Counted from the stretch's first letter, positions 47,093 through 52,569 are shown. The stretch: DNA of 64,000 bases from Bacteroidota bacterium (GCA_031367345.1 JANLPR010000108.1:1213-65212); one strand, 5' to 3'. Translations and numbers: made by a program. The notes: generated by a model from the sequence alone, not told the origin.

Positions 47093-47677
47093 TTAAAGGT
47101 CCTGTGCTATTATAAATAAAATTTGCAAGGAGTAGAGGCCCGGTCTGTAATTTAATCCCGGAGTAATTCTTAAATCAACGCGAAATTGATAACAACTAGG
47201 GTCGGTTGCATAACTTCCGGGCGTATTGGTTCCTGTTGGGTTGGCGTCCGAACAATTTACTGCAGGATCAGGCGCGCCTTGATGGCCTATAATATCTAAT
47301 GTTGAAGTAGCGATATCTTGGAGTGGAGTAAAGTTGGAAACTTGAGAAGTGTTCCTCAGATTGTGTACACGTAATGAAACCATATTAACAGCCGGAGTCC
47401 CATTCCCACTGGTTCCATAGTATTGCACATTGTCCCAGATACCTGCCGTTGTCGTACTGGCTCCCATGTATAAATCCCATTGGGTTCCGATTGCCTCTAC
47501 ATTTAAAGTTATTGCATTTGGAATGTAAATGCCATTGGTCAGTTTTTGAAAGGTGTTAAAATTAAAATCAACATTGGATGCACTGGCAAGATCAATATTC
47601 ACCGATTGTGCCTTCGATGAAAAAGAAAAGAAAGCAACGAATACAATAATGATGAAATGGCTTTTAGTGCGCATCAA
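47093..47677 (-). CDS. Small secreted protein, candidate fibre subunit B (paralog of 47818..48525)
   Basis: Signal peptide ...FSFSSKAQ. Shares NVDFNFNTFQK, QWDLYM and C-terminal RPGLYSLQILFIIAQDL with the neighbour. No T9SS CTD and no lipobox. Confidence 0.6.
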   Translation of the reverse strand: MMRTKSHFIIIVFVAFFSFSSKAQSVNIDLASASNVDFNFNTFQKLTNGIYIPNAITLNVEAIGTQWDLYMGASTTTAGIWDNVQYYGTSGNGTPAVNMVSLRVHNLRNTSQVSNFTPLQDIATSTLDIIGHQGAPDPAVNCSDANPTGTNTPGSYATDPSCYQFRVDLRITPGLNYRPGLYSLQILFIIAQDL

Positions 47678-47764
47678 ATAGGAAGAATGAGATAAACTTG
47701 ATTTACTTTGAAATAGCTTTAAATGTTACAAAAGGAAAAAACAATTAATTTGAAATTCACCAAA

Positions 47765-47797
47765 ACAAAAAAAGCCCTCATGTGAGTGAGGGCTTTT
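47765..47797 (-). terminator. Intrinsic terminator after candidate subunit A gene
   Basis: Stem gccctca / tgagggc (47774-47780 / 47787-47793) with a 6-nt loop. On the minus strand it is followed by TTTTTTTGTTTTG. Lies about 20 nt past stop 47818. Confidence 0.7.
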
Positions 47798-49585: not shown

Positions 49586-49641
49586 GGTGGGTTTTTGATT
49601 ATTTTTTCTAGTTTTTACGGTTTTTCTTTTAAAGAGTTGTG

Positions 49642-52569
49642 TCATTTTTGTTCTTCTCCTTTCAGATTAAACTTCTTAATATTCATTTTTCGCTTTTTCT
49701 CAACGGCATTAAATGTTAGACTGAAATTCTCAGTAAAATAACTTAGGTCAACTTCCACTTTGTTTTGAAGCATTTCATAATTACTTCCTAACGCTGTTTC
49801 GTTAATAGAAATAGTATATAGTCCTGTTGGTACATACATCTGGAAGTTTCCTCCCTTATCAGTTAAGGCCGAATACGTTTTCCCGGCTGAGTCAATCGCC
49901 GTTACTCTAATTCGGTTAATGTCAAGTGAAGTTTCTTGATTGGAATATTTGTCTGCTTGAACCAAAAGTGAGCCTGTTAAACGGACACCTTTTGTTAATG
50001 CAAGGTAGATTATGCCTTTCTTGTCTATTTGATATTCGCCATTGTTTGCATCAAACCATTCTCCTTGATTTACTAATGGTGTGCATTTAATCATATAACT
50101 TCCTGCAGGAATATTTTCGTAAACGATCGTACCTTTATTGTCCGTAATAAAATCTTCACCATGCGCTCTATTCATATTTAATGTGTCGCTATTGTCACCG
50201 GTAAAACTCATCGGACGAATATTTATAAGCATGTCAGTTACGCCTTCTTCGTTTTTATCTAGCTTATGATTTCCATTTAAGTCTTTATAAACAACTATTG
50301 TGGTGCTGGTAAATTTTTTCCCCGGTACCGGAATACCAATCTGTTTACGAACACCAAATCCAATACTTAAATCAGTATTTGAAATTGGTTGAAATGCATC
50401 CTTTGTGGGTCGATCGTCTAACAAGGGGTTTGCACTTTGTTTGGAAGTCGTAAAGGAAACATAAGCCGACAAACGAATGCCGGATTTAGTGTAGTAATAG
50501 ATTTCGGGATGCAAACGGAAATTTATTTTTTTGAAATACGACTCATAAATAAAATTTCCTGTTGTACTCACTAATAATTTGCCTTCAGCTGCCCAATAGT
50601 CGTATGTTCCAACTACATGCAAAGACTGCGGATTTATTTTGTCTTTTACAAAACGGCTTTGTTCGGTTAATTGATTTGCACCATAATAATAGCGCACATT
50701 CAATGAAAGTTTTGTCCATCGAGCAAAAAAGCTCATGCGTGCAGTGAAGAATTCAGGAATGTTATAGTCGATTGCTTTTACATAACCAAAAAATCCACTC
50801 ATTGAAACTCGCACGGCTGTTAAATTTCTAATGTTGTAATCGATACCTATTCCTGAAGTTTGTGTACGCAATGATTGATTTGATTGATATTGGTATGTTG
50901 GTTTGAATGAAGTAATGGCTGCCGAAGTTTGAATTCCATAACGGAGCTCATATCTATCGGTTCTAATTGGATTGCCTTCTTTAGAAAAGCCATGAAAGAA
51001 ATATTCGGGACGTTGATTGAAATTTTGAAAGGAGAAAGCAATAAATTTTTTAGGATCAAAAGCATAATTGATTCGACCTGTAACAACATCCGTTCCTCTT
51101 GCTAAAGCATAATTTCCTGTGCCATGAGAAAAGCCAATTGATCCGCTTATCTTATTAAAGTTGCCGGAATAGTTTACATCGTATCCGTATCCGGGCGAGG
51201 TGGCTTTAACTGTATCTTTCGAATATCTTTCTAAACTTGCACCACCACCAATCATAAATTGGTGATGAACATTGAGCTTATAACTAATTCCTGTATTCAG
51301 CAAGCTGTTTGTATTATTTAAGGCTTGGCTAGACTGGGTAGAATAGTAATTATTCCAACTAAATTTTTTTGTTTTATAATTGTGATAAAGTCCGAGCCCC
51401 TGTGATGTTGGAGATTTAAAAAGATCGGGTCCTCTTGTTATCATTGCACCAAAGGTGTTTTTGCCTAACACTTTCGTCGCTTTCAACCCTTTTCCTGAAA
51501 GCAAACTTCTTCCCCATCCATTTACTTCACCTAATTCAAGCGATGATTTGTCGGAGAAATAACCGATGTAATGATTATTGCCTAAGAATGAATTTTGATC
51601 GAGAAAATTGGTAATAAATACTGTTTGGAATCGGTAATTTATCATTGAGTTTTCTTTCAACATAGCTGTCCCATAAGCATCGAGCGACATCGTTGTTCCG
51701 TCTGAAAGTATATCGTAAACATTTGCATCGAGCACAAGCGGAATGGCCGACCGACCAAATTCGTTTTGCTTAACAGTATTACTGAGTTTAAAGAACTGTA
51801 CACTTCCACTCCAGCTTACCGTAGAAGTGAGTGCTTTCGCTAAAATCTGAATTGAATACGCTTCCTTAGTTGGAGCGGCATGCAAGTCTGCGTCTTTTTT
51901 GCCAATACTTTTTAATTGTTGTTTTTTATAGACCGGAAAAGTTAGAAGAGTGTCAGTACCAACCGGGAGATTAACAGTAAAAGTGAGAAGCGCCGCACCG
52001 CCATCTATGGCGCGAATAATCTCTAATCGACGATCAGGCACTAACGTAATCCGAATTTGTTCGTCGGTATTTCCATTGTTTTTTAATAGAACTTTGAACC
52101 CTGAAGAATCTGTTTCAGAAATAAAATACTGTTGTTTCACAGGCATAGTCGCCTTCCAGTCGGAGTGGACAGGAATAGTAACATACCAATTTTGTGAAGC
52201 AAATTGTAAACCTTTTTCAGTCGAGAGCCAAGCCGTTACGATATAGCTAGTCCCTCCTTTTGATGCACGATTTACGATAAGTCTTACGGGCAAGAAAACA
52301 GAGTCTCCAGCGGCTAATTCAATGTCTTTCTCCGGATTTCCTAAATATTGCCATCCGGCAGGCAAGGAGAAATTCACATGAAATCTTACAACAGCGTTAG
52401 AATAGTTGCGAATACGCAAGGTGTTATTGGCAACCTCATTTACATCTTGTTTGGTATTATTTTTCACAAACGACGCCTGGATGCCGAGTGATGCGGCATC
52501 AATCTTTTCTGCGACCGATGAGAGTAGCAGAAGAGCAATAAAAAGAAGGCGAAAATTGCGTAAGGGCAT
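49642..52569 (-). CDS. Large outer-membrane protein with usher-like architecture (N-terminal Ig-like domains, ~480-aa barrel-like core, two C-terminal beta-sandwich domains)
   Basis: Signal peptide ...VAEKIDAAS. Residues ~30-250 form two CARDB/NEW3-like segments (LRIRNYSNAVVRFHVNFSLPAGW; FKVLLKNNGNTDEQIRITLVP). Residues ~260-740 are Y/G/S/N/F-rich with alternating hydrophobicity. The C-terminus has VYKDLNGNHKLDKNEEG...YENIPAGSYMIKC (SdrD-B/Cna-B-like) and TDKGGNFQMYVPTGLYTISI (CarboxypepD_reg-like). Confidence 0.55.
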   Translation of the reverse strand: MPLRNFRLLFIALLLLSSVAEKIDAASLGIQASFVKNNTKQDVNEVANNTLRIRNYSNAVVRFHVNFSLPAGWQYLGNPEKDIELAAGDSVFLPVRLIVNRASKGGTSYIVTAWLSTEKGLQFASQNWYVTIPVHSDWKATMPVKQQYFISETDSSGFKVLLKNNGNTDEQIRITLVPDRRLEIIRAIDGGAALLTFTVNLPVGTDTLLTFPVYKKQQLKSIGKKDADLHAAPTKEAYSIQILAKALTSTVSWSGSVQFFKLSNTVKQNEFGRSAIPLVLDANVYDILSDGTTMSLDAYGTAMLKENSMINYRFQTVFITNFLDQNSFLGNNHYIGYFSDKSSLELGEVNGWGRSLLSGKGLKATKVLGKNTFGAMITRGPDLFKSPTSQGLGLYHNYKTKKFSWNNYYSTQSSQALNNTNSLLNTGISYKLNVHHQFMIGGGASLERYSKDTVKATSPGYGYDVNYSGNFNKISGSIGFSHGTGNYALARGTDVVTGRINYAFDPKKFIAFSFQNFNQRPEYFFHGFSKEGNPIRTDRYELRYGIQTSAAITSFKPTYQYQSNQSLRTQTSGIGIDYNIRNLTAVRVSMSGFFGYVKAIDYNIPEFFTARMSFFARWTKLSLNVRYYYGANQLTEQSRFVKDKINPQSLHVVGTYDYWAAEGKLLVSTTGNFIYESYFKKINFRLHPEIYYYTKSGIRLSAYVSFTTSKQSANPLLDDRPTKDAFQPISNTDLSIGFGVRKQIGIPVPGKKFTSTTIVVYKDLNGNHKLDKNEEGVTDMLINIRPMSFTGDNSDTLNMNRAHGEDFITDNKGTIVYENIPAGSYMIKCTPLVNQGEWFDANNGEYQIDKKGIIYLALTKGVRLTGSLLVQADKYSNQETSLDINRIRVTAIDSAGKTYSALTDKGGNFQMYVPTGLYTISINETALGSNYEMLQNKVEVDLSYFTENFSLTFNAVEKKRKMNIKKFNLKGEEQK

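Follow-up and report, generated by a model that had tools for sequence, protein, structure and literature searches.

Surveys of chaperone-usher systems list Proteobacteria, Cyanobacteria and Deinococcus-Thermus, and the locus described here raises the question of whether a pathway of this type also builds surface fibres in the Bacteroidota. The locus lies in a stretch of 64,000 nucleotides (nt) from a Bacteroidota bacterium (GCA_031367345.1, JANLPR010000108.1:1213-65212; this whole stretch is called the window below), whose minus strand carries four open reading frames (ORFs) head to tail at positions 47093-52569. An earlier reading of the DNA (the original prediction) had proposed a four-gene fibre locus with chaperone-usher logic in this place, and we found the ORFs in the order that it gave, including a gap of 56 nt between the stop of the first gene and the start of the second. 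In that order, they encode a 975-amino-acid (aa) protein predicted to be an outer-membrane porin of usher-like architecture (49642..52569, from the ORF, AlphaFold2 and Foldseek); a 272-aa, two-domain periplasmic chaperone, a remote homologue of PapD/FimC (48767..49585, from hhalign, AlphaFold2 and Foldseek); a 235-aa major fibre subunit homologous to the protomers of the TLP-1a/b fibrils (47818..48525, from a profile match to PDB entries 9IKJ and 9IKK); and a 194-aa minor subunit, a paralogue without donor strand and a putative tip or initiator (47093..47677, from paralogy and locus comparison). We consider it probable that these genes specify the assembly of a TLP-1-like surface fibre by a divergent pathway of chaperone-usher type.

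The major subunit provides the closest link to a known fibre. A profile of its family matched 9IKJ (E = 7e-28) and 9IKK (E = 4.5e-28), with query residues 23-230 aligned to chain residues 2-236, and the window sequence alone reached TLP-1 at E = 3e-13. These two entries are TLP-1a and TLP-1b, pond-water fibrils determined by electron cryomicroscopy (cryo-EM) in the CryoSeek study (PNAS 2024; PMC11494351). In TLP-1, the chain starts where the signal peptide of the 235-aa protein is predicted to be cleaved, both proteins have the same donor core, VTMDLQ, and the C terminus of the subunit aligns with that of the TLP-1 chain, where structural strand beta7 lies (PMC11494351). TLP-1 fibrils are helical tubules 8 nm wide with a 15-Å lumen and about four protomers per turn, in which beta1 of protomer n+4 enters the beta2a/beta2b/beta7 cleft of protomer n and completes its immunoglobulin (Ig)-like fold (PMC11494351); since the donor is protomer n+4, the tubule consists of four strand-linked protofilaments. 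The proposal that the small proteins are strand-exchanging fibre subunits thus gains support from a homologous family in which the exchange has been seen by cryo-EM, and by this homology the window subunit would be expected to exchange donor strands as well.

The locus also bears on where TLP-1 comes from. The authors of the structure, who suggested that the fibrils are uncharacterised bacterial pili, had no match to the sequence in their own metagenome and proteome and did not identify the species, genes, chaperone or porin, and the words 'chaperone' and 'usher' occur in their paper in the reference list only (PMC11494351). In a preprint of 2025, this group continues to describe the source as uncharacterised bacteria. 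In databases, the proteins nearest to the TLP-1 model sequences (40-56% identity) are metagenomic. One of the long contigs among them (L042), with a subunit about 40% identical to TLP-1, adjoins a protease tagged for the type IX secretion system (T9SS). Because relatives of TLP-1 sit in the same gene set as that of the window, because L042 has this T9SS neighbour and because the closest structural homologue named in the TLP-1 paper is a protein of a Flavobacteriales bacterium (PMC11494351), TLP-1-type fibres are very probably products of such loci in Bacteroidota, as judged from sequence comparison.

The two small proteins differ in the segment that would be donated. In the major subunit, the N-terminal donor strand comprises mature residues QLSAQEYVAVTMDLQG (48406..48453, minus strand) and aligns with TLP-1 beta1. 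The donor motif is near-invariant in the subunit family: it is present in all major orthologues, directly after the signal peptide and with the form (L/I)xD(Q/E)EY(V/A)xVTMDLQG in the subfamily of the window, and in no minor orthologue. The minor orthologue instead begins at the beta2-equivalent segment in all loci, lacking the donor strand and retaining both the C-terminal strand and the remaining conserved motifs of the core. A subunit of this kind could accept a strand and not donate one, and so could sit only at the first-assembled, distal end of a fibre, as tip subunits of chaperone-usher pili do; by this analogy we infer that the 194-aa paralogue is a tip or initiator subunit. The 194-aa and 235-aa proteins had been described as paralogues with pilin-like C termini, and both points hold, with tblastn matches between them (E from 1e-6 to 1e-9) and a shared, invariant C terminus, PGxYxL...DL-COOH. 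Neither small protein matched any Pfam family at E ≤ 1, and NCBIfam gave nothing above noise for them. SCPU and DUF4402 had been put forward as profiles to compare with; among ten diverse subunit relatives, Pfam gave nothing, with SCPU, DUF4402 and Fimbrial all unmatched.

An exhaustive profile search collected the subunit family in 264 representative clusters. Among them are fusions of 420-457 aa (P0301, P0305, P0330 and P0362) made up of a minor-like domain, a linker of 6-8 residues, a donor-like strand and a major-like domain, and in one locus (L044, 3572-4837) such a fusion occupies the slot of the minor gene. This domain order is what complementation in cis of a minor subunit by the donor strand of the next subunit would look like. 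Two cysteines of the minor subunit, within residues ~140-165 (NCSDANPTGTNTPGSYATDPSCY), could be joined in a disulfide loop; cysteine is entirely absent from the major subunit. In locus L009 (10519-11178), the major-subunit gene seems frameshifted across the donor-strand region (LSDQERCGYYGPSRYPELNM), probably through an assembly error.

We then turn to how widely the four genes travel together. A pattern scan restricted to one genome per species yielded 40 loci, all of them from Bacteroidota, while the loci from metagenomes bear no taxon label; among genome-derived loci, the pathway has so far been found only in this phylum. Most of the 40 genomes are metagenome-assembled genomes (MAGs); also among them are Pontibacter harenae, Pedobacter sp. 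SYSU D00535 and, as a complete genome, Candidatus Pollutiaquabacter aromativorans. The nearest genome match is a Bacteroidota MAG (L001) with a chaperone 95% identical to that of the window. Names of the carriers, which are mostly MAGs, suggest stream, lake and wastewater sources. In every one of these 40 species-level genomes with a locus long enough to judge, the four genes are adjacent. The synteny check that the original prediction called for was thus positive: some 70 related loci retain the linkage, and at least three gene orders occur among them, namely porin-chaperone-major-minor and major-minor-porin-chaperone in the 40 near loci and chaperone-major-minor-porin in a more distant clade. 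In the TLP-1 clade, the major, minor and porin genes are linked in that order in 33 of 35 metagenomic loci of at least 6 kb, and 29 of these 33 also have the chaperone gene, usually just upstream. With all four genes linked in the near loci and the major, minor and porin genes in 33 of the 35 distant ones, the linkage is far beyond chance.

Flanking genes vary between loci, and the module therefore consists of the four genes alone. A cupin gene (53061-53672) and kdsB were considered as further parts of the system and rejected, as neither is consistently adjacent in relatives. The 235-aa protein is the best conserved of the four, with 80-88% identity where the porin has about 50%. One locus (L031, 1971-4962) carries three tandem major-subunit genes ahead of the minor gene. 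Two marine metagenome loci (L094, 7923-8711; L097, 7144-7932) hold a lone major-subunit homologue among unrelated genes, with no chaperone, minor-subunit or porin gene within 8 kb of it.

The 272-aa protein had been read as a PapD-like chaperone of two domains, and two methods bear this out. An hhalign alignment of 22 homologues to six classical chaperones from annotated records (FimC, YadV, MrkB, Caf1M, FaeE and PefD) gave a probability of 92.2% (E = 5.7e-7), and its 213 columns extend across both domains. A Foldseek search with the AlphaFold2 model (predicted local distance difference test, pLDDT, 83.8; two beta-sandwich domains) returned CfaA, CsuC, Caf1M, EcpB, FimC and SafB at E from 1e-10 to 1e-8 over ~250 columns, covering the alternate (CfaA), archaic (CsuC) and classical (Caf1M, FimC, SafB, EcpB) classes of pilus chaperone. 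By these comparisons, the protein is a remote but detectable homologue of PapD/FimC in both domains. Curated families reached it below threshold only, mainly the PapD-related MSP, ASH, Cep192 and PapD_N; PapD_N stayed under its gathering score, with a best E of 2.7e-5 and matches in 5 of the 22 homologues. PDB sequence searches with the single sequence and with the profile returned just MSP-domain proteins at E ~0.02. Many homologues are named 'P pilus assembly chaperone PapD' at JGI and some 'molecular chaperone' at NCBI.

The model also offers a candidate for the strand that a chaperone would lend to its subunit. Residues 132-161 (KEKKGSESGDKNSIGLGVTETFQFVVHIFQ; 49103..49192, minus strand) form a loop that is disordered at 132-153 (pLDDT <50 at 139-151) and then, at 154-161, a strand; in this G1-like strand, TFQFVVHIFQ, hydrophobic residues alternate. 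In the hhalign alignment, TFQFVVHIFQTPP lies on the G1 strand of FimC, with the invariant His158 in the Lys112 column. The gene also has an alternative 292-aa reading from an ATG at 49645, whose 20 extra N-terminal residues are unconserved in homologues. Chaperones of the TLP-1 clade (L041-L044) have an extra segment of ~20 residues after the signal peptide compared with that of the window, and the subunits of the same loci end in EDQ, EDI or ENQ as against EDL; by sequence, the chaperone cleft and the subunit C terminus may co-vary.

For the 975-aa protein, the original prediction had described the module order of a fimbrial usher with a core of ~480 aa, and AlphaFold2 (mean pLDDT 79.6, barrel mostly >90) gave the same order: a signal peptide, two Ig-like domains (30-131 and 138-262), a 473-aa barrel (275-747) and two beta-sandwiches (753-872 and 888-941). 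The N-terminal Ig-like domains (residues 30-262; 51784..52482, minus strand), identified from DSSP strands and weak matches to the Ig-like families FixG_C and NPCBM_assoc, might serve as a docking site for chaperone-subunit complexes. They were also considered as chaperone-like domains themselves and rejected as such (hhalign of the chaperone against the porin profile, 3.8%). The beta-barrel core (50329..51747, minus strand; from the strand list and pLDDT >90) has ~26 consecutive hairpin strands, very short loops on both sides and one helix (634-643). Foldseek placed FimD first among PDB structures (3rfz_E, E = 6.9e-11, 890 columns), with further FimD and PapC entries next, and BtuB, Cir and LptD, barrels of 22 to 26 strands, also matched (E from 1e-8 to 1e-6); from the strand pattern and these barrel matches, the model suggests that the barrel is closed. 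No Pfam or NCBIfam family covers it, and a search of the porin profile against PDB sequences returned no match, ushers included.

The two C-terminal beta-sandwich domains (residues 753-941; 49747..50313, minus strand) are of the prealbumin/SdrD_B/CarboxypepD_reg type by Pfam, and among 31 porin homologues SdrD_B was found in all 31 and CarboxypepD_reg and SpaA in 24. Orthologues of the porin in the TLP-1 clade are longer (1167-1231 aa; L042, 11565-15068; L044, 4958-8653). At the C terminus, these distant orthologues have additional peptidoglycan-binding domains of the SPOR or LysM type, absent from the window porin, and such tails place the porin C terminus in the periplasm, as in ushers.

Joined together, these parts suggest the following pathway. 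The four proteins would be exported, presumably by Sec, and the PapD-like chaperone would hold subunits in the periplasm, where its G1-like strand, behind the long flexible loop, would probably fill the missing-strand cleft of the subunit. Judging from architecture and synteny, chaperone-subunit complexes would dock on the Ig-like and beta-sandwich domains of the porin in the periplasm, and subunits would pass through the ~26-strand barrel. The N-terminal strand of each major subunit (QLSAQEYVAVTMDLQ) would then displace the chaperone strand in a previously added subunit. The minor paralogue, keeping the acceptor cleft and having no donor, would come to lie at the distal end and probably starts the fibre, and a terminator-like hairpin between the subunit genes would favour the major subunit over downstream genes.

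Several observations weigh against this pathway. No plug-domain insertion is present in residues 275-747 of the porin, where the longest inter-strand connections measure 15-18 residues, one of them with a 10-residue helix. Usher, PapC_N and PapC_C gave no match to the window porin (E ≤ 1) or to the 31 homologues (E ≤ 0.01), and hhalign of the porin against six classical ushers reached 3.6%. BtuB, Cir and LptD stand just 3-4 orders of magnitude below FimD in the Foldseek ranking, with low TM-scores. The usher claim thus stands in part, FimD being the best structural match, and fails in part, in usher sequence homology and in the plug-like insertion, whose lack the original prediction had itself named as a sign against it. 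Because the architecture is FimD-like and no sequence method links the porin to ushers, we regard the 975-aa protein as usher-like in its modelled architecture and genomic role and, by sequence, as no member of the usher family. The PapD/FimC A1-strand motif that had been claimed, VSISPSRLYY...EINITN, is present, its arginine is invariant in the 22 homologues and, as Arg30 (SPSRLYY), it falls in the Arg8 column of FimC. However, four TLP-1-clade chaperones have His, Thr or Ser in place of the arginine and Tyr, Leu or Gly in place of His158, and because both are replaced there, it is not secure to read Arg30 and His158 as anchors of the subunit C-terminal carboxylate, the role of the Arg8/Lys112 pair in the cleft of chaperone-usher chaperones.

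A further difficulty lies in geometry. The window major subunit is 26-30% identical to TLP-1a/b, a level at which fibre geometry is not transferable, and an 8-nm tubule of four n+4-linked protofilaments is not obviously built by a monomeric barrel that adds single subunits. Estimated geometrically, the backbone of a 26-strand barrel would be ~48 Å across, wide enough for one subunit at a time and not for an 8-nm tubule. It is conceivable that a turn of four minor subunits starts the four chains, that the four periplasmic domains hold several chaperone-capped ends at once, or that several pores cooperate. A more specific version of the chaperone-usher-type pathway, which we hold tentatively and at a little under an even chance, is that the locus represents a separate branch in which a true PapD-type chaperone works with a porin not descended from ushers (~26 strands, plugless, gated by its terminal domains) to build an n+4, four-stranded tubule. 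If true, this branch would need an assembly mode unseen in any chaperone-usher system, and it would give the orphan TLP-1 fibrils an organism, genes and machinery.

The same difficulties invite an explanation in which the fibre self-assembles outside the cell, as in TasA fibres and archaeal cannulae, and needs no usher-type catalysis, with the PapD-like protein a mere periplasmic holdase and the 975-aa protein a passive export channel or surface anchor rather than a platform for assembly. A porin with neither plug nor usher sequence homology would suit such a role, and the n+4, four-protofilament geometry of TLP-1 is hard to build subunit by subunit at a single pore (PMC11494351). Donor-strand polymers that form without a chaperone exist (PMC12518558), and a few loci have no adjacent chaperone gene, two of them holding only the major gene. 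Against this, the subunit genes lie together with the porin gene in 33 of the 35 long TLP-1-clade loci and in all of the 40 near loci long enough to show subunit genes. The porin also has four periplasmic beta-sandwich domains in usher-like order, with FimD as its top structural match, and a two-domain PapD homologue is otherwise known from usher-dependent systems. We therefore consider self-assembly unlikely and retain the chaperone-usher-type pathway.

Improbable to a much greater degree is the idea that the chaperone-usher likeness is convergent or superficial, the 272-aa protein being a WxLIP-like adaptor or a generic tandem-Ig protein that tethers a non-fibrous coat. It arises from the structural search, in which WxLIP structures from Enterococcus top the Foldseek list of the 272-aa model (E = 1e-12) and the tandem-Ig proteins RbmA and CEP192 also score well; in Pfam, Cep192, ASH and MSP score as well as PapD_N, and one distant homologue has a weak WxLIP_PGBD match. 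However, WxLIP proteins are Gram-positive and carry a C-terminal transmembrane helix (PMC10599100), whereas the C terminus of the 272-aa protein (...AAEMEMEVK) is a soluble beta-strand with no hydrophobic tail. The profile alignment to pilus chaperones moreover spans both domains and sets Arg30 on Arg8, and homologues of the partner protein form fibres. Finally, that the genes are accidental neighbours, with fibre motifs read into beta-rich proteins of which three of four lack an above-threshold match to a curated family (Pfam, NCBIfam), is refuted by synteny and homology, as linkage persists in about 70 loci despite reordered genes and differing flanks and the proteins match TLP-1 (E = 1e-28) and pilus chaperones strongly.

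Directly 3' of the major-subunit gene lies an intrinsic-terminator-like hairpin with an 11-bp stem and a T-run (47770..47797, minus strand). A GC-rich hairpin with a T-run occupies the equivalent site in 31 of 32 related loci (within L001-L039), and as the stem sequences are unrelated, it is the structure that is conserved rather than the sequence. Given this recurrence, the hairpin is probably an attenuator that raises the level of the major subunit above that of the minor one. An A-rich intergenic region of 241 nt (48526-48766) lies upstream of the major-subunit gene, far longer than the porin-chaperone gap, and may hold a separate promoter; a sigma-70 scan gave fewer matches than in shuffled sequence and is uninformative. 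For the 194-aa protein, whose ORF opens with TTG, translation more likely begins at the next codon, the ATG at 47674.

All four proteins have a signal-peptide-like N terminus. None has a cysteine in the first 40 residues, and a search of the four for Por_Secre_tail, the T9SS sorting domain, gave no match, so that the claimed lack of T9SS and lipoprotein signals was confirmed; NCBIfam gave nothing meaningful for any of them. The six T9SS cargos claimed elsewhere in the window were confirmed as well, Por_Secre_tail being present in six other proteins (117-2459, 6088-10554, 17139-20261, 20389-22470, 23030-25243 and 30061-31782), which makes the host a T9SS-bearing member of the Bacteroidota. The last of these also bears a Porphyromonas-type peptidyl-arginine deiminase domain. 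Two other identities were considered for the four proteins: T9SS cargo was rejected on the absence of Por_Secre_tail from all of them, and a type V pilus on the lack of cysteine in the first 40 residues and of any Pfam match in the small proteins.

The original prediction also called the pathway undescribed, which holds for the genes and less so for the fibre. In the searchable literature, with searches on chaperone-usher systems in Bacteroidetes/Bacteroidota and on follow-ups of TLP-1, no paper described these genes, and none reported a system of chaperone-usher type from Bacteroidota or an origin for TLP-1; yet fibres of relatives were imaged in 2024 as TLP-1. The loci offer a candidate organism, genes and assembly route for the orphan TLP-1a/b, and cultured carriers exist. 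Chaperone-usher-type assembly would thereby reach the Bacteroidota, which are otherwise associated with type V pili and with T9SS-dependent surface proteins. The combination of a PapD-homologous chaperone, a plugless non-usher porin and, in a relative, a four-stranded tubule asks which parts of the usher mechanism are essential. TLP-1-type fibres persist free in fresh water, and possible roles of the fibre include adhesion, a biofilm matrix or transport through the lumen.

Compared with known systems, the window locus shares features with four. The WxLIP-WxL complexes of Enterococcus and Lactobacillus (PDB 9I25 and 9I1Y) contain a two-domain Ig-like WxLIP, which ranks first among structural matches to the 272-aa model, and the beta-sandwich of its partner is completed by a disordered WxLIP hairpin that turns into a strand (PMC10599100). 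WxLIP differs in being Gram-positive, anchored by a C-terminal helix and peptidoglycan-binding, and its partners are WxL-domain proteins that do not polymerise and have no porin; Pfam found no WxLIP_PGBD match in the 272-aa protein. With the type V pili (FimA, Mfa1), the window system shares its phylum and strand-exchange fibres. Type V pilins are made as lipoprotein precursors and cleaved by a protease before they polymerise, whereas the window subunits have ordinary signal peptides, no cysteine and an N-terminal donor, and the locus adds a PapD-like chaperone and a porin.

TLP-1 resembles the window locus in its subunit, through full-length homology, the position of the mature N terminus, the VTMDLQ core and the C-terminal strand. 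Relatives of TLP-1 (up to 56% identical to the modelled sequence) sit in a chaperone, major, minor and porin gene set like that of the window. The window subunit lacks several surface insertions of TLP-1.

The last of the four are the chaperone-usher pili of Proteobacteria, which comprise classical (type 1 FimACDH, P), alternate (CFA/I, CS17) and archaic (Csu, CupE) forms. The window system differs from them as follows: the porin has ~26 predicted strands as against 24, no plug insertion, two N-terminal Ig-like domains and a place outside the Usher sequence family; the chaperone has a histidine in the Lys112 column of the classical proteins; and in TLP-1 the donor is protomer n+4, whereas in chaperone-usher pili it is n+1. 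Both nevertheless share a two-domain PapD-type chaperone, a subunit fold completed by the N-terminal strand of another subunit (by homology in the window family), a donor-less subunit of tip type, operon linkage with a stem-loop after the major-subunit gene and an outer-membrane barrel, predicted in the window, that is flanked by periplasmic beta-sandwich domains.

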